Positions 4,586 through 36,319 of a DNA stretch of 64,000 nt are shown here, piece after piece. Location of the stretch: the NCBI RefSeq assembly GCF_054482595.1, contig NZ_CM137008.1; one strand, 5' to 3'. The notes under the pieces were generated by a model that saw only the letters and a list, made by a program, of their open reading frames with translations, ran no database searches and had not been told where the DNA came from. The position numbers were made by a program, and so were the translations under genes. How positions within the stretch are numbered: position 1 is the first letter of the stretch; the number at the start of each line of letters is the position of its first letter.

Positions 4586-4608
4586 GTCAAATTAATCCTT
4601 CATTCTAA

Positions 4609-4630
4609 GTTGCATAGTCAACTATACAAC
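4609..4630. promoter_or_regulatory. near-palindromic 22 bp candidate operator in the divergent promoter region
   Basis: gttgcatagtcaactatacaac is an imperfect palindrome in the 122 bp intergenic region between the GntR gene and the amidohydrolase gene. Coordinates approximate. Confidence 0.3.
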
Positions 4631-4707
4631 TTCAAGGGTGACGGTATGTCATTTTAGCAGATATCACCTTCAGGTGTGGTCAGTTAAACATAAATGAGTT
4701 AGAGAAA

Positions 4708-5505
4708 ATGATTTTTGATACGCATGCGCATGTTTTTGTTCGAGGATTACCATTAGCGGAACATTGCCGATATGTTCCTGATTACGACGCCACACCGGAG
4801 AGTTATCTGACTCACTTGGATCGGTTTGGCATTGATGTTGGTATTCTGGTGCAACCCAGTTTTCTGGGGACGGATAACCACTATATGCTTGAGGCTCTTC
4901 GCCGTTACCCTACCCGGTTTCGTGGTGTAGCCGTTGTGGATCCAAACATTACGCGCTGTAAACTGGATGAAATGGCAAAATTAGGGGTCACTGGTATCCG
5001 CTTAAATTTAGTCGGCGTGGAAATTCCCGATCTTACGCAACCTGCATGGCAACACCTGTTAGAACATATTAAAGCCCTGGGATGGCATGTTGAGCTACAC
5101 AGAGCTGCGCGCGACTTGCCAGCGTTAATTACGGTATTACTTAAATCCGGTGTAAAGATTGTCGTTGACCATTTCGCGTTGCCTTCTCAGGAAGAGAAAC
5201 AAAACGATCCCGGATTTCAGTTTCTCCTTGAGCATGCAGAAACGCAGCAAATCTGGTTGAAACTTTCTGGCGCCTATCGCAATGGCAGTACTGAAACTCT
5301 CAACGATAACGTGGCACCGTTAATTCCTCTCCTGCTGCAGCATTTTGGACCTGCACATTTATTGTGGGGTAGCGACTGGCCACATACTCGATACGAAAAT
5401 GTCGTCAATTATCAAAAAACGTTCGAGTTACTGACGCAGCAAATACCTGATAAAGAAATGAGAAATAAAATTTTATCGGTTAGTGCAGAATCACTTATCG
5501 ATTAG
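4708..5505 (+). CDS. Amidohydro_2 family metal-dependent hydrolase (lactonase/decarboxylase-type TIM barrel)
   Basis: 265 aa; N-terminal DTHAHVF metal-binding motif and C-terminal WGSDWPH motif characteristic of the amidohydrolase-2 (LigI-like) family. Confidence 0.8.
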   Translation: MIFDTHAHVFVRGLPLAEHCRYVPDYDATPESYLTHLDRFGIDVGILVQPSFLGTDNHYMLEALRRYPTRFRGVAVVDPNITRCKLDEMAKLGVTGIRLNLVGVEIPDLTQPAWQHLLEHIKALGWHVELHRAARDLPALITVLLKSGVKIVVDHFALPSQEEKQNDPGFQFLLEHAETQQIWLKLSGAYRNGSTETLNDNVAPLIPLLLQHFGPAHLLWGSDWPHTRYENVVNYQKTFELLTQQIPDKEMRNKILSVSAESLID

Positions 5506-5536
5506 TTGGATTGAGAATATAGTCGAAAGGTATATC

Positions 5537-6886
5537 ATGAGCATATTTTATAAAAAAAGCTGGTACAAGTGGATTGTATTGGTGGTTTGTATTCTTGCCT
5601 ATTCATCAGGAAACCTGGTGCGCTGGAATTATACGGGAATATCGCAATATCTTATTGGTGAATGGCACATTGGAAAAGAAGAATTGGGGATCCTTGGTTC
5701 CGCATTCTTTTATGCCTACGCGATTGGGCAAAGTCCCTGGGGAACACTTACCGATATATTAGGCGGACGCAGAGTTATTTCTATCGGTATTTTAATTACC
5801 GCTATTATGTTCTCTCTCTTTGCTTTTGCGGGTGGCTACCATGCCGCTATCATCATTCGAGTATTAATGGGATTTGTTGGGGCGGCAACATTTGTGCCTT
5901 GTATGGCGGTACTTTCTCGCTGGTTTAGTAAAAAGGAGCGAGGTATGGTGCTGAATATCTTCTCTGGCACAGGTGGTGGATTAGGTGAGCTGTGGTCCTT
6001 TTTATTAATGCCATTGATTTCATTATTTATGGTAGGCGGCGCTACCGTGCTTGGCCTGAGCTCCTGGCGTGCATCTACGCTAATTATGGCGTTTGTCACA
6101 CTGGCGATCATGATCCTCTGTTTTGTCGGTATGCGCTCCGACCCGTCGGAATTAGGTCTTCCGTCCGTTGTTGAACAGGAGACGCGTAAGCAGGCGAAAG
6201 AACATAGCTATGCCAGGACACTGCTTAATGCGTTGCGCGATCCGTGGTTCTGGGTCATTACATTCGCCTGGCAAGGTTTTACCGTTTCTCTGCGTCTGCT
6301 ACCGGCCTGGTTGCCTATCTATGCGGCAGCTTACTACAAACAGACACAGGGATTATCCAGCGTTGAGGCGATGGTCGCAGGAGGTATGATAGCATCAGTG
6401 TATGTTGCCGGACGTATTTTGGGAACGCCTGTCTTTGGCAAATTATCTGACTTTTTGCTTGTCAGTTATAACGTACCAAGAACATTGATTATTGCTTGCT
6501 TCCATATCTTTATTACCGTCTCAATGTTTGCTCTTAGCCATCAAATGCCTTCCACATTTTTATTTGCAGTTCTGGTTTTTGTGATTGGTGCCGCGATAAA
6601 TATGTTCCCTCTGGTTAATGCAGTCGTCGCAGAAATCTGGCCGGTTAAAACGGGGGGCGCGTTAATGGGGATGGTGAATACGGTTGGGCAGTTAATAGGT
6701 GCCTCAGCGTTGGCCTACAGTGGTTTTATGGCAGAAAAATTTTCCATAGCCGGAGCAGGATACAGTTTTGAGTATCGTGGCATTTGGTATTTGGCAATGA
6801 TATTCAGTTCAATATCTATCCTGGCGTCTCTGTTGGCGATGCATCGCGAAAAACAAAGTATTCGGGAAAATGCCTTGAGTCATTAA
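5537..6886 (+). CDS. MFS transporter
   Basis: About 449 aa from the ATG with upstream AAAGG RBS; roughly 12 predicted TM segments; the longer track ORF (5483) is an upstream extension. Stop is 5 bp before the citC ATG. Confidence 0.8.
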   Translation: MSIFYKKSWYKWIVLVVCILAYSSGNLVRWNYTGISQYLIGEWHIGKEELGILGSAFFYAYAIGQSPWGTLTDILGGRRVISIGILITAIMFSLFAFAGGYHAAIIIRVLMGFVGAATFVPCMAVLSRWFSKKERGMVLNIFSGTGGGLGELWSFLLMPLISLFMVGGATVLGLSSWRASTLIMAFVTLAIMILCFVGMRSDPSELGLPSVVEQETRKQAKEHSYARTLLNALRDPWFWVITFAWQGFTVSLRLLPAWLPIYAAAYYKQTQGLSSVEAMVAGGMIASVYVAGRILGTPVFGKLSDFLLVSYNVPRTLIIACFHIFITVSMFALSHQMPSTFLFAVLVFVIGAAINMFPLVNAVVAEIWPVKTGGALMGMVNTVGQLIGASALAYSGFMAEKFSIAGAGYSFEYRGIWYLAMIFSSISILASLLAMHREKQSIRENALSH

Positions 6887-6891
6887 GCATA

Positions 6892-7947
6892 ATGTTTAAT
6901 CATATATTTACCCAGGTCAAACGTTCAGAAAATAAAAAAATGGCGGAAATCGCCCAATTCCTGCATGAAAATGATTTGAGCGTTGACACCACTGTCGAAG
7001 TATTTATTACCGTAACCCGCGATGAAAAGCTTATCGCGTGCGGCGGAATTGCCGGAAATATTATTAAATGCGTTGCTATCAGTGAATCCGTTCGCGGTGA
7101 AGGACTGGCGCTGACATTAGCCACCGAACTGATAAACCTCGCCTATGAGCGGCACAGCACGCATCTGTTTATTTATACCAAAACCGAATACGAGGCGCTG
7201 TTCCGCCAGTGCGGTTTTTCCACGCTGACCAGCGTCCCCGGCGTGATGGTGCTGATGGAAAACAGCGCCACGCGACTGAAACGCTATGCCGAATCGCTGA
7301 AAAAATTTCGTCATCCAGGGAACAAGATTGGCTGCATTGTGATGAACGCCAATCCCTTTACGAATGGTCACCGTTATCTGATTCAACAGGCTGCGGCACA
7401 GTGCGACTGGTTGCATCTGTTTTTAGTCAAAGAAGATTCTTCACGCTTCCCCTATGAAGACCGGCTGGATCTGGTGTTAAAAGGCACCGCCGATATTCCA
7501 CGCCTGACCGTGCATCGCGGCTCCGAATACATCATCTCCCGCGCTACGTTCCCTTGCTACTTCATTAAAGAACAGAGCGTCATTAACCATTGTTACACCG
7601 AAATTGATCTGAAGATTTTCCGTCAGTACCTCGCTCCCGCGCTGGGTGTAACTCACCGCTTTGTCGGTACTGAACCCTTTTGTCGCGTTACCGCCCAGTA
7701 CAACCAGGATATGCGCTACTGGCTGGAAACGCCGACTATCTCCGCACCGCCCATCGAACTGGTTGAAATTGAGCGGCTGTGTTACCAGGAGATGCCGATA
7801 TCCGCTTCCCGGGTACGCCAACTGCTGGCGAAAAACGATCTCACGGCTATCGCGCCGCTGGTCCCTGCAGTCACGCTGCATTATTTGCAGAACCTGCTTG
7901 AGCACTCCCGCCAGGACGCGGCAGCTCGTCAAAAGACCCCCGCATGA
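6892..7947 (+). CDS. citC: [citrate (pro-3S)-lyase] ligase
   Basis: Sequence recognised as CitC (MFNHIFTQVKRSENKKMAEIAQFL..., NANPFTNGHRYL motif); the track ORF starting at 6784 is an in-frame extension overlapping the MFS gene. Confidence 0.9.
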   Translation: MFNHIFTQVKRSENKKMAEIAQFLHENDLSVDTTVEVFITVTRDEKLIACGGIAGNIIKCVAISESVRGEGLALTLATELINLAYERHSTHLFIYTKTEYEALFRQCGFSTLTSVPGVMVLMENSATRLKRYAESLKKFRHPGNKIGCIVMNANPFTNGHRYLIQQAAAQCDWLHLFLVKEDSSRFPYEDRLDLVLKGTADIPRLTVHRGSEYIISRATFPCYFIKEQSVINHCYTEIDLKIFRQYLAPALGVTHRFVGTEPFCRVTAQYNQDMRYWLETPTISAPPIELVEIERLCYQEMPISASRVRQLLAKNDLTAIAPLVPAVTLHYLQNLLEHSRQDAAARQKTPA

Positions 7948-7961
7948 GAAACAGGTGAAAA

Positions 7962-8258
7962 ATGAAAATAAACCAGCCCGCCGTTGCAGGCACCCTTGAG
8001 TCTGGGGATGTGATGATACGCATCGCCCCACTCGATACGCAGGATATCGACCTGCAAATCAACAGCAGCGTTGAGAAACAGTTTGGCGATGCCATTCGCA
8101 CCACCATTCTGGACGTTCTCGCCCGCTACAACGTGCGCGGCGTACAGCTGAATGTCGATGACAAAGGCGCACTGGACTGCATTTTACGTGCACGACTGGA
8201 AGCCCTGCTGGCACGCGCCAGCGGTATCCCGGCTCTGCCATGGGAGGATTGCCAATGA
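7962..8258 (+). CDS. citD: citrate lyase acyl carrier protein (gamma subunit)
   Basis: 98 aa, [24 protein letters not shown]...; operon position. Confidence 0.9.
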
Positions 8259-9163
8259 TTTCCGCTTCGCTGCAACAACGTAAAACTCGCACCCGCCGCA
8301 GTATGTTGTTTGTACCTGGTGCTAATGCCGCGATGGTCAGCAACTCCTTCATCTACCCGGCTGATGCCCTGATGTTTGACCTCGAAGACTCCGTTGCATT
8401 GCGTGAAAAAGACACCGCCCGCCGCATGGTTTACCACGCGCTGCAACATCCGCTTTATCGCGATATTGAAACCATTGTGCGTGTAAACGCGCTGGATTCC
8501 GAATGGGGTGTTAACGACCTGGAAGCCGTCGTTCGCGGTGGTGCGGACGTTGTGCGTCTGCCGAAAACCGATACCGCTCAGGATGTTCTGGATATCGAAA
8601 AAGAGATCCTGCGTATCGAAAAAGCCTGTGGTCGTGAACCCGGCAGTACCGGCCTGCTGGCGGCGATTGAATCTCCGCTGGGCATTACCCGCGCGGTAGA
8701 AATCGCTCACGCTTCCGAGCGTTTGATCGGTATCGCCCTCGGTGCAGAAGACTATGTGCGCAACCTGCGTACAGAACGCTCCCCGGAAGGAACTGAACTG
8801 CTGTTCGCTCGCTGCTCCATTTTGCAGGCCGCGCGTTCTGCGGGTATTCAGGCGTTCGATACCGTCTATTCCGACGCTAACAACGAAGCCGGATTCCTGC
8901 AAGAAGCCGCCCACATCAAACAGCTGGGCTTTGACGGCAAATCGCTGATCAACCCGCGTCAGATTGATCTGCTGCACAACCTCTACGCACCGACCCAGAA
9001 AGAAGTGGATCACGCCCGCCGCGTCGTAGAAGCCGCTGAAGCCGCCGCTCGCGAAGGCCTCGGCGTGGTTTCCCTGAACGGCAAGATGGTGGACGGTCCG
9101 GTTATCGATCGCGCCCGTCTGGTGCTCTCCCGCGCAGAACTTTCCGGCATCCGCGAAGAATAA
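8255..9163 (+). CDS. citE: citrate lyase beta subunit (citryl-ACP lyase)
   Basis: Starts at the [10 protein letters not shown] methionine, overlapping the citD stop (ATGA); HpcH/HpaI aldolase-type sequence. Confidence 0.9.
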
Positions 9164-9173
9164 GGCAATCAAA

Positions 9174-10706
9174 ATGACGCAGAAAATTGAACAATCTCAA
9201 CGACAAGAACGGGTAGCGGCCTGGAATCGTCGCGCTGAATGCGATCTTGCCGCTTTCCAGAACTCGCCAAAGCAAACCTACCAGGCTGAAAAAGCGCGCG
9301 ATCGCAAACTGTGCGCCAACCTGGAAGAAGCGATTCGTCGCTCTGGTTTACAGGACGGCATGACGGCTTCCTTCCATCACGCTTTCCGTGGCGGTGACCT
9401 GATCGTCAATATGGTGATGGACGTCATCGCGAAGATGGGCTTTAAAAACCTGACTCTGGCCTCCAGCTCCCTGAGTGATTGCCATGCGCCGCTGGTAGAA
9501 CACATTCGCCAGGGCGTGGTTACCCGCATTTATACCTCTGGCCTGCGCGGTCCACTGGCGGAAGAAATCTCCCGTGGTCTGCTGGCGGAACCGGTGCAAA
9601 TCCACTCTCACGGCGGACGTGTGCATCTGGTACAGAGCGGCGAACTGAATATCGATGTGGCTTTCCTCGGCGTCCCGTCCTGTGATGAATTCGGTAATGC
9701 CAACGGCTACTCCGGTAAAGCCTGCTGCGGCTCCCTCGGCTATGCAATGGTTGATGCCGACAACGCAAAACAGGTCGTGATGCTTACCGAAGAACTGCTG
9801 CCTTATCCGCATAATCCGGCAAGCATTGAGCAAGATCAGGTTGATCTGATCGTCAAAGTTGATCGCGTTGGCGATGCTGCAAAAATCGGCGCTGGTGCTA
9901 CCCGTATGACCACTAACCCGCGCGAACTGCTTATTGCCCGTAGCGCTGCGGATGTGATTGTTAACTCTGGCTACTTCAAAGAAGGTTTCTCTATGCAGAC
10001 CGGCACCGGCGGCGCTTCGCTGGCGGTAACCCGTTTCCTGGAAGACAAAATGCGTAGCCGCGATATTCGCGCCGACTTCGCCCTCGGCGGTATTACCGCA
10101 ACGATGGTTGATCTGCACGAAAAAGGTCTGATCCGCAAACTGCTGGATGTGCAGAGCTTTGACAGCCATGCTGCGCAATCGCTGGCCCGTAACCCCAATC
10201 ACATCGAAATCAGCGCCAACCAGTACGCTAACTGGGGGTCGAAAGGCGCATCGGTTGATCGTCTCGACGTGGTGGTACTGAGTGCGCTGGAAATTGACAC
10301 CCAGTTCAACGTTAACGTGCTGACCGGCTCTGACGGCGTACTGCGTGGTGCTTCCGGTGGTCACTGCGATACCGCAATTGCCTCTGCGCTTTCCATCATC
10401 GTCGCGCCGCTGGTACGCGGTCGTATTCCGACGCTGGTGGATAACGTGCTGACCTGCATCACCCCGGGCTCCAGTGTCGATATTCTGGTCACAGACCACG
10501 GCATCGCTGTTAACCCGGCACGTCCGGAGCTGGCAGAACGTCTGCAGGAAGCGGGGATCAAAGTGGTTTCTATTGAGTGGCTGCGTGAACGTGCGCGTCT
10601 GCTGACCGGTGAACCACAGCCGATTGAATTCACCGACCGCGTCGTTGCCGTTGTGCGTTACCGCGATGGCTCGGTGATCGATGTTGTGCATCAGGTGAAG
10701 GAATAA
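9174..10706 (+). CDS. citF: citrate lyase alpha subunit (citrate CoA-transferase)
   Basis: 510 aa, recognised as CitF. Confidence 0.95.
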   Translation: MTQKIEQSQRQERVAAWNRRAECDLAAFQNSPKQTYQAEKARDRKLCANLEEAIRRSGLQDGMTASFHHAFRGGDLIVNMVMDVIAKMGFKNLTLASSSLSDCHAPLVEHIRQGVVTRIYTSGLRGPLAEEISRGLLAEPVQIHSHGGRVHLVQSGELNIDVAFLGVPSCDEFGNANGYSGKACCGSLGYAMVDADNAKQVVMLTEELLPYPHNPASIEQDQVDLIVKVDRVGDAAKIGAGATRMTTNPRELLIARSAADVIVNSGYFKEGFSMQTGTGGASLAVTRFLEDKMRSRDIRADFALGGITATMVDLHEKGLIRKLLDVQSFDSHAAQSLARNPNHIEISANQYANWGSKGASVDRLDVVVLSALEIDTQFNVNVLTGSDGVLRGASGGHCDTAIASALSIIVAPLVRGRIPTLVDNVLTCITPGSSVDILVTDHGIAVNPARPELAERLQEAGIKVVSIEWLRERARLLTGEPQPIEFTDRVVAVVRYRDGSVIDVVHQVKE

Positions 10707-10709
10707 GTC

Positions 10710-12123
<1,414 letters not shown>

Positions 12124-12148
12124 ATCATTAATATATCCGGAGTTAACT

Positions 12149-36090: not shown

Positions 36091-36319
36091 GTTGGAGTCA
36101 TTACCGAATCAACCTATGGTGCGGTATGTTTAAGTATGCCGGTATTCAATATGTATAACAGAGTTAACTATGCAATCTCACTTTCTGGCGATCCGGTAAT
36201 TTATTCAGGAAATAAGATAGACAGCTATCTGGAGTTGCTCCGGAAATGCACAGGGCAAATATCATATGGGCTGGGATACAGAAACGAAAATGAACATTTA
36301 CGAAAAGGAAACTGAGGTA

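Follow-up and report, generated by a model that had tools for sequence, protein, structure and literature searches.

Organization of the locus

The 122-bp intergenic region considered here (positions 4586-4707 of the 64-kb stretch of DNA analysed, hereafter the window) separates a leftward gene for a GntR-family regulator from a rightward series of nine closely packed genes (Table 1). The identical RefSeq locus of strain O157:H16 Santai reads ISL3 transposase, leftward GntR regulator, rightward operon and then an IS66 remnant, the operon being ordered amidohydrolase, MFS, citC, citD, citE, citF, citX, citG and acnB; Pfam concurs with this order, and the placement of acnB after citCDEFXG is supported by both the RefSeq annotation and NCBIfam. 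The identities that an initial annotation had given to the regulator, amidohydrolase and cit-acnB genes are right. The Amidohydro_2 gene, which together with the MFS gene occupies 4708-6886, is LigI/COG3618-like, with matches to PDB 2ffi (1e-67) and to LigI (4.5e-24).

The region belongs to an accessory island of E. coli: a 1.8-kb query across the feature was found at at least 99% identity in 32 of 5426 complete E. coli genomes, chromosomally in every case, and the same query had no match among PLSDB plasmids. The citC-citE DNA of the island has ~98.6% identity with the native cit locus that essentially every E. coli carries, and since this homology begins at 6898, six bases into citC (codon 3), the native citC promoter is absent from the island. 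The island acnB is 96.5-96.9% identical to the native acnB, over the ORF alone. Island-bearing strains carry second copies of the cit and acnB genes that are joined at gene boundaries to a foreign regulator-hydrolase-MFS module, an arrangement that suggests a mosaic origin or gene conversion.

Table 1. Coordinates of genes, predicted control elements and comparison regions. Positions are those of the window unless a locus number (L) is given.
Feature	Position	Strand	Basis or remark
Regulator gene, HutC subfamily, 241 aa	3860..4585	-	Pfam GntR 1.6e-18 (PF00392), UTRA 8.3e-23 (PF07702)
Shine-Dalgarno of regulator gene, AAGGA	4596..4600	-	TAATCCTT conserved in close loci; between ATG and operator
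Full near-palindrome AAGTTGCATAGT-CA-ACTATACAACTT, 26 bp	4607..4632	.	Repeat search; 11/12 pairs, 2-nt centre (E. coli)
Core operator (predicted), site 1: GTTGCATAGTCAAC, 14-bp pseudo-palindrome, GTTG/CAAC boxes 6 nt apart	4609..4622	.	Central T and A at 4615/4616
16 invariant columns (33-48 of alignment A2)	4609..4624	.	Six enterobacterial orthologous regions
Low-confidence candidate operon promoter, TTGCAT (4610-4615), 18-nt spacer, AAGGGT (4634-4639)	4610..4639	+	Weight-matrix scan, alignment A2
10-mer TAGTCAACTA: right half of site 1 plus the TA centring the overlapping second register	4615..4624	.	k-mer count
Third half-site TATACAAC, right arm of the 22-mer	4623..4630	.	Direct repeat of TAGTCAAC, 8-bp period
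Predicted extended -10 of regulator gene, TGCTAAAAT	4651..4659	-	Start inferred near 4644
Perfect inverted repeat CACCT-TC-AGGTG	4665-4676		E. coli only
Amidohydrolase (Amidohydro_2)	4708-5505	+	Pfam, RefSeq annotation of identical locus
MFS	5537-6886	+	RefSeq annotation, Pfam
citC	6892-7947	+	RefSeq annotation, Pfam
citD	7962-8258	+	RefSeq annotation, Pfam
citE	8255-9163	+	RefSeq annotation, Pfam
citF	9174-10706	+	RefSeq annotation, Pfam
citX	10710-11261	+	RefSeq annotation, Pfam
citG	11236-12123	+	RefSeq annotation, Pfam
acnB	12149-14746	+	RefSeq annotation, Pfam, NCBIfam
Putative regulated operon, nine genes	4708..14746	+	Intergenic gaps -26 to +31 bp
Operator cores (predicted) in paralogue loci	L010 3917-3932, 3980-3995; L011 3992-4007; L134 upstream region		Bordetella and relatives
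acnB-context regions	L005 4628-8464; L006 4825-7422		

Position and symmetry of the palindrome

The 22-bp near-palindrome that had been noted at about 4609..4630, gttgcatagtcaactatacaac, lies at exactly 4609-4630, with 9 of its 11 mirrored pairs complementary and mismatches at C4613/A4626 and at the central C4619/A4620. It had been described as centred between the two genes; its centre, however, is at 4619.5 and the midpoint of the intergenic region is at 4646.5, so that it sits nearer the regulator gene, whose ATG is 34 nt away, than the amidohydrolase gene, whose ATG is 88 nt away. Stretches of 22 bp in which 9 or more of 11 pairs match number 14 in the window and 9.6 +/- 3.2 in dinucleotide shuffles, and the symmetry of the 22-mer by itself does not exceed what chance would give in 64 kb. 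For the form with 12-nt arms (11 or more of 12 pairs) the expectation is 0.8 per 64 kb and ~0.0015 per 122-bp intergenic region. The near-palindrome at 4607-4632 is present in a single copy in the window with up to three mismatches allowed (0 expected).

Conservation upstream of regulator relatives

Relatives of the regulator ranging from 99% down to ~30% identity were collected by protein search, from which 14 loci were retrieved, orthologues being obtained through the protein search together with exact-protein contig look-ups; two further loci came from a DNA-pattern scan of metagenomes. Scanning genome contigs with the regulator protein gave one close relative only, that of Intestinirhabdus alba. 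The motif is conserved at 15 loci whose regulators are 36-88% identical to the one here, a set that extends from E. coli as far as Bordetella and a soil contig of 66% GC. An unbiased k-mer count placed the 10-mer TAGTCAACTA in 13/13 upstream regions, and in 9/9 of those that are mutually unalignable, while any 8-mer was common to at most 4 loci in shuffled controls. The upstream regions nearly always have GTTG[C/T]ATAGTCAACTA, and GTTG[C/T/A]ATAGTCAAC is found in nearly all. The 14-mer GTTGCATAGTCAAC, exact or with one or two changes, stands upstream of the regulator relative in 14 of the 15 loci, the fifteenth (L133) having AATGACTAGTCAACTA in its place. The exact 14-mer occurs in Bordetella and on the 66%-GC contig as well, and on the latter (L012, L041) the motif persists though the regulator is 36-40% identical. 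Flanking DNA is unalignable and the neighbouring operon differs in some loci. The site is conserved upstream of orthologous regulators amid diverging non-coding DNA. Some loci vary the layout, e.g., L010 has a perfect palindrome, GTTGACTAGTCAAC, Citrobacter amalonaticus (L008, L132) has two direct copies of the 14-mer, and E. fergusonii (L009) has two inverted copies. The called start codon of the regulator overlaps the motif in L011 and L133, where the starts have probably been called too far upstream.

In the alignment of six enterobacterial orthologous regions (A2), 4609-4624 is the longest invariant run of the intergenic part, with eight columns to its left and two to its right varying freely. 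By these comparisons the palindrome region is the best-conserved non-coding element upstream of the regulator orthologues and paralogues.

The genes beside the regulator are less constant. At every enterobacterial locus (52-88% identity) the regulator gene diverges from an Amidohydro_2 gene that is followed by a transporter gene (MFS or CitMHS), and citC and its companions and/or acnB are often close by. In Chitinasiproducens (47% identity) the operon is MFS-amidohydrolase-aconitase, the aconitase being of the AcnA type, and at three beta-proteobacterial loci (L010, L011, L134; 42-49% identity) the divergent operon encodes methylaspartate ammonia-lyase (MAAL), TctC and PrpD. The motif stays with the regulator where the divergent operon becomes MAAL-TctC-PrpD. 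It tracks the regulator lineage, not the structural genes, and therefore carries the signature expected of the regulator's own binding site.

Half-sites and the selected unit

A position table of 16 sites showed the left box GTTG (4609-4612) to be kept in 13-16 of them, and in the right outer arm C4627 alone to be well kept (13/16). The CAAC/CAAT of the third half-site is retained in the six close loci, the two nucleotides preceding it varying (TA, TG, AT, CA, GT); the varying right-arm positions 4625-4626 have no compensating change in the left arm of the six-locus alignment, where covariation equals that of shuffled controls. The third half-site is conserved only in close relatives, and weakly. 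Because the left box and TAGTCAACTA are kept and the right arm is not compensated, we take the selected unit to be GTTG-N6-CAAC, centred between T4615 and A4616, together with the next TA. This predicted unit, GTTGYATAGTCAAC(TA), is 14-16 bp long, as opposed to a 22-bp palindrome centred between C4619 and A4620. The initial annotation was correct that a near-palindromic element lies here, and what it delimited as the element is to be shortened and its centre moved 4 bp leftward.

The best reading of the E. coli sequence is as a set of three half-sites, each 8 nt long and of the form TA-nn-CAAC, namely an inverted GTTGCATA, then TAGTCAAC, then TATACAAC as a direct repeat. TAGTCAAC shares its TA with the inverted GTTGCATA, and TATACAAC follows 8 bp further on; the outer two half-sites are mutually inverted, hence the longer palindrome visible in E. 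coli. Together with 4617-4622 the third half-site makes up a weaker second register, GTCAACTATACAAC, and the middle segment, being common to both registers, may owe its top conservation to this.

The regulator and its fit to the GntR/HutC family

The regulator has an N-terminal GntR winged helix-turn-helix (wHTH) and a C-terminal UTRA domain, as expected of the cognate regulator of such a site. Its closest solved structures are NagR/YvoA (phmmer 1.4e-24 over 224 residues, at low overall identity) and DasR, and it scores below every NCBIfam equivalog cut-off (for the HutC equivalog, 95.8 vs 220 bits). The NagR-DNA crystal structure contains a 14-bp palindrome, GTGGTCTAGACCAC, with boxes at -7..-4 and +4..+7 that are 6 nt apart, in which Arg38 reads G-5, Arg48 reads G-4 and the wing residue Gly69 reads G-7; native NagR sites are imperfect palindromes in which T is frequent at -5 (PMC4333415). 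The site here likewise has two 4-nt boxes ~6 nt apart around a TA (GTTG-CATAGT-CAAC, 4609-4622). In the phmmer alignment Arg44 corresponds to NagR Arg48, Gly65 to Gly69 and Asn34 to Arg38, so that, as far as contacts can be inferred by alignment, the DNA-reading residues of the wHTH suit the bases of the site, with Arg44 and Gly65 kept and with Asn34 matching a site that has T at -5. Of 35 homologues none has Arg at position 34, the residue being Asn or Thr in all, and a preference of Asn for A has been reported by Suvorova et al. Homologues as distant as 42% identity keep the recognition helix TTRATVVHA almost unchanged, and this conservation runs parallel to that of the DNA motif.

The site does not match the strict subfamily consensus GT-M-TA-K-AC, the agreement being 5/8 for GCATAGTC in E. 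coli and 6/8 for GTATAGTC in L007 and L009. Within the central 8 nt, G-4, C+4 and the TA centre are kept and +3 is T instead of A, a deviation from the consensus logo and not from the geometry. HutC proper binds TGTA-N2-TACA, and its Phut site has three half-sites with dimer-to-hexamer binding (PMC12977541); extra half-sites beside GntR-family palindromes are also on record (PMC4494728). The examined part of the HutC site tables of PMC4494728 does not contain this regulator group, and our literature search found nothing specific to this gene cluster or motif.

We consider it likely, from comparative and structural sequence evidence, that the element is the operator of the adjacent HutC-subfamily regulator, which would repress its own gene and probably the amidohydrolase-cit-acnB transcript until an effector binds. 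What the comparisons show is that the site exists, that it is conserved and goes with the regulator lineage, and that both its geometry and the regulator's contact residues suit the family.

Promoters and the reach of control

In nine loci 23 nt separate the regulator ATG from the start of the 14-mer, and the structural gene is 71 to 208 nt away; in E. coli the amidohydrolase start is 86 nt downstream of the site. The six close loci share a minus-strand extended -10, TGnTA(G/A)AAT, whose offset from the operator is constant (n = C, C, C, T, T, A), and this is the only promoter-like element conserved at a fixed offset. With this element at 4659 to 4651 in E. coli, leftward transcription would start near 4644 and the operator would occupy about +15 to +36 of the regulator transcript. 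Shine-Dalgarno sequences at other loci are AAGGA, GAGGA, GGGAG or CAGGA, 9-11 nt ahead of the regulator ATG. As the operator lies ~15-36 nt downstream of the conserved -10 of the regulator gene, bound regulator should throttle its own synthesis, and autoregulation is the best-supported effect, given that the site keeps its position relative to the regulator gene and that no promoter element is conserved other than the one on the regulator strand.

Other elements in the region were considered and set aside. A minus-strand promoter using the invariant TTGACT within the operator as its -35 would have as downstream hexamers only the Shine-Dalgarno region or ones at 19-nt spacers, and a minus-strand TTGTAT-16-TAGAAT (score 9.2) is specific to E. 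coli and would start so as to remove the Shine-Dalgarno. A CRP-like TGTGG-N6-AAACA seen by eye at 4675-4690 has a poor right half, is not kept in orthologues and is ~3 bp off a class II position. The TGTGG block itself (4675-4679) is conserved in 5/6 of the close orthologous regions and overlaps the CACCT-TC-AGGTG inverted repeat.

On the plus strand, neither the promoter scan of the locus nor the weight-matrix scan of the six orthologues found a consensus-like or consistent promoter. In the low-confidence candidate (Table 1) the E. coli hexamer AAGGGT matches TATAAT at 2/6, and of 4634-4639 only A4635 and T4639 (positions 2 and 6) are invariant in A2, the orthologues having GAGAAT, GAAAGT or GAGAGT. 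Were this TTGCAT-18-AAGGGT promoter real, the operator would lie over its -35 and spacer, with the two promoters overlapping back to back. Promoter-like hits at 5511-5538 and 6363-6390 occur at chance frequency, and such hits in the region as a whole are no more frequent than chance predicts; the operon may have internal promoters.

Control of the nine-gene cit-acnB operon by the site appears likely. Dependence of the cit genes on this control region is favoured because gaps between genes are at most 31 bp, the native citC promoter is absent and orthologous Citrobacter loci run from MFS directly into citC. Published single-site HutC divergons, against this, tend to place the site mid-region or nearer the structural operon. 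The earlier proposal that the site governs the whole operon, the citrate lyase genes included, thus draws strength from the tight packing and the missing native promoter, and loses some from the failure of our scans to find an operon promoter and from the anchoring of the site to the regulator gene. Where acnB is a separate unit (L005, L006) no site of 9 bits or more precedes it, and the aconitase is therefore not always in the predicted regulon. In L005 (C. werkmanii) the regulator-hydrolase module stands beside an apparent housekeeping acnB with a DUF3300 gene beyond it, an acnB-DUF3300 order that we take to resemble yacH-acnB of E. coli K-12. In the metagenome contig L006 acnB is likewise convergent with the regulator, and no DUF3300 gene was seen there.

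Proposed mechanism and alternatives

In the mechanism that we propose, a regulator dimer would recognise the 14-bp pseudo-palindrome GTTGCATAGTCAAC (4609-4622), with Arg44 contacting G at -4, Asn34 the T:A pair at -5 and the wing residue Gly65 G at -7, an arrangement that would be that of NagR and HutC on their own sites. The 22-26-bp symmetry of the E. coli sequence comes from the third half-site TATACAAC (4623-4630), which may permit higher-order binding or a second register. A weak operon promoter probably has its -35 and spacer under the site, in which case the regulator bound there would also repress the amidohydrolase-MFS-citCDEFXG-acnB transcript. A small-molecule effector would bind the UTRA domain and lower DNA affinity, leading to derepression, and this effector may be a lactone or tricarboxylate of the pathway.

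Two alternatives are live. The site could be a true operator that serves autoregulation only, the operon being transcribed from a promoter further right or internal to it and outside the site's control. The fixed distance to the regulator ATG and variable distance to the structural gene, the restriction of conserved promoter elements to the regulator strand and the want of a good plus-strand promoter overlapping the site are all in keeping with this. We nevertheless regard it as unlikely: catabolic operons divergent from the gene of a HutC-family regulator are normally under its control, a lone site in a divergon is taken to serve both sides, no second site lies nearer the amidohydrolase gene, positions 2 and 6 of the -10-like hexamer to the right of the site are invariant, and L009 has a TATGAT hexamer directly after its second site.

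That the bound regulator instead activates the operon from an upstream position seems to us quite improbable. An operon promoter to the right of ~4650 would put the site at about -40 to -70, an activator-type position, and the weak plus-strand promoter elements are typical of activated promoters; yet the characterised HutC-subfamily members NagR, DasR and HutC are repressors released by an effector, and we found no conserved spacing to any plus-strand -35.

It is very improbable that the palindrome functions at the RNA level, as a 5'-leader hairpin that affects the stability or translation of the regulator mRNA, and not as protein-binding DNA. The E. coli minus-strand leader does fold with the palindrome as a hairpin (MFE -16.9 kcal/mol, z = -3.4 vs shuffles), but pairs 37-50 and 38-49 are broken in 5/6 and 4/6 sequences, respectively, and one double-change cell was seen, the same as in shuffles; covariation at the level of shuffled controls led us to reject a structured RNA element on compensatory change. 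Further, distant loci lose the right arm and retain the 14-16-mer, the copies in L008 and L132 are direct and not inverted, and no Rfam family matched.

A chance palindrome, a mobile-element remnant or a site for an unrelated factor is hardly credible and already largely refuted by the comparative data: 22-bp palindromes with 9/11 pairs do occur at chance rate in the window, IS elements do flank the island and the 16-mer alone is found in many unrelated metagenomic contigs, mostly within coding DNA, but the motif is linked to the regulator lineage in 15 loci that include non-island chromosomal contexts, is unique in the window and is absent from the IS copies.

Further sites in the window and in metagenomes

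Pattern and position weight matrix (PWM) scans of the window found no credible additional site. The second-best match, ATTGCATAGTTAACTC at 36161-36176 (16 of 28.3 bits), has one CAAC box broken and was judged to be chance; it lies between an IS1 transposase gene and a gene of the DHDPS family, adjoining the IS1 end. An exact scan of metagenome contigs for GTTGYATAGTCAACTA gave 120 loci, 67 of them inside stretches of 150 aa or more that have no stop, for the most part in AT-rich DNA; a HutC-type gene is present only in L012, L041 and L111. Most of the 120 matches are chance, and therefore the 16-mer alone is not diagnostic at that database size. On a 12-kb metagenomic contig (L071), a 36-bp perfect palindrome GTTGCATAGTCAACTAATATTAGTTGACTATGCAAC at 1387-1422 consists of two copies of the 16-mer; it is intergenic, and no HutC-type gene was detected on that contig. 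In L111 (60%-GC contig), GTTGTATAGTCAACTA at 426-441 lies ~60 nt upstream of a HutC-like gene on the same strand whose product is 29% identical, and is adjoined by a dre-like TGGTCTAGGAC at 449-460; these could be either a related motif or chance.

Pathway and wider reading

The combination of Amidohydro_2, transporter (MFS or CitMHS) and aconitase is conserved in L005, L006, L007, L008, L009, L132 and L133. At Amidohydro_2 loci enterics have AcnB as the aconitase and Chitinasiproducens an AcnA-type enzyme, and some of these loci include citrate lyase genes. The product of the Amidohydro_2 hydrolase is probably a substrate of aconitase; our literature search found no paper describing a hydrolase-transporter-aconitase pathway.

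We tentatively suggest that GTTGYATAGTCAACTA and the regulator lineage define an undescribed HutC-subfamily regulon in gamma- and beta-proteobacteria and a high-GC soil bacterium, with a lactonase-transporter-aconitase branch, a MAAL/TctC/PrpD sister branch and a register-choice layout, a proposal that we hold to be plausible and somewhat short of probable. If it is true, the lineage would be marked by the helix TTRATVVHA and by Asn or Thr replacing NagR Arg38. In one branch a lactonase-transporter-aconitase route for a tricarboxylate lactone would be induced, citrate lyase being included or not, and a methylaspartate-lyase/TctC/PrpD route would be under the control of the sister branch. The asymmetric layout of three half-sites, in which two overlapping registers 8 bp apart share TAGTCAACTA, would then reflect register choice or higher-order binding and not a simple dimer on a palindrome.

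For practical purposes, the operator offers a precise handle on a rare island that pairs a LigI-like hydrolase and transporter with a second citrate lyase and aconitase B. Its consensus could be used in an effector screen (release from a 14-26-bp duplex) leading to the pathway substrate, to predict regulon members elsewhere and to build a reporter.

Comparison with known systems

NagR (YvoA) with dre in B. subtilis and DasR with dre in Streptomyces have the same GntR wHTH and UTRA architecture as the regulator here. The NagR dre site GTGG-TCTAGA-CCAC and the present GTTG-CATAGT-CAAC share 14-bp geometry and a central TA, and the equivalents of NagR Arg48 and Gly69 are conserved (Arg44, Gly65). 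The system here differs in having Asn34 in place of Arg38, T at -5 in both half-sites, a different central 6 nt and a third half-site, and its effector would not be an amino-sugar phosphate.

The claim of the initial annotation that the palindrome is of the HutC/FarR type divides along its two names. For HutC, there is the subfamily of the regulator and a half-site geometry like that of solved or footprinted HutC-family operators; for FarR, the expected repeats are absent. FarR binds direct repeats of TGTATTAWTT, which does not occur in 4586-4707, and with the main element an inverted pair we rejected an operator of the FarR/MngR direct-repeat type. FarR/MngR regulators do belong to the same subfamily, and a direct-repeat component is present here (TAGTCAAC then TATACAAC, 8-bp period).

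The resemblance to HutC at Phut of Pseudomonas extends to the half-site TTGTAT (L007, L009) or TTGCAT (E. coli), which is a HutC-type half-site, and to the HutC core TGTATATACA, matched at 8/10 by TGTATAGTCA (L007, L009). HutC of Pseudomonas is moreover a repressor released by a pathway intermediate, and in the part of the site tables of PMC4494728 consulted, the HutC-group protein HutC_RET2 has PSEN at the position of NagR Arg38, as does the regulator here. Unlike Phut, the site here has AGTCAAC and not ATACAAG as its right half, an asymmetry retained all the way from E. coli to Bordetella; its target genes have nothing to do with histidine use, and the regulator scores far under the HutC equivalog cut-off. 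Suvorova, Korostelev and Gelfand 2015 (PMC4494728) found a weaker, one-sided extra box ~11-13 nt from the centre of the main palindrome, as is seen here, their extra boxes being a statistical trend without a mechanism. With extra GntR-family half-sites and the three-half-site Phut on record (PMC4494728, PMC12977541), the three-half-site architecture has precedent. As regulation, then, this would be an ordinary bacterial switch that should not surprise specialists, a conventional HutC-family repressor acting at what, on the comparisons made here, is almost certainly its own site.
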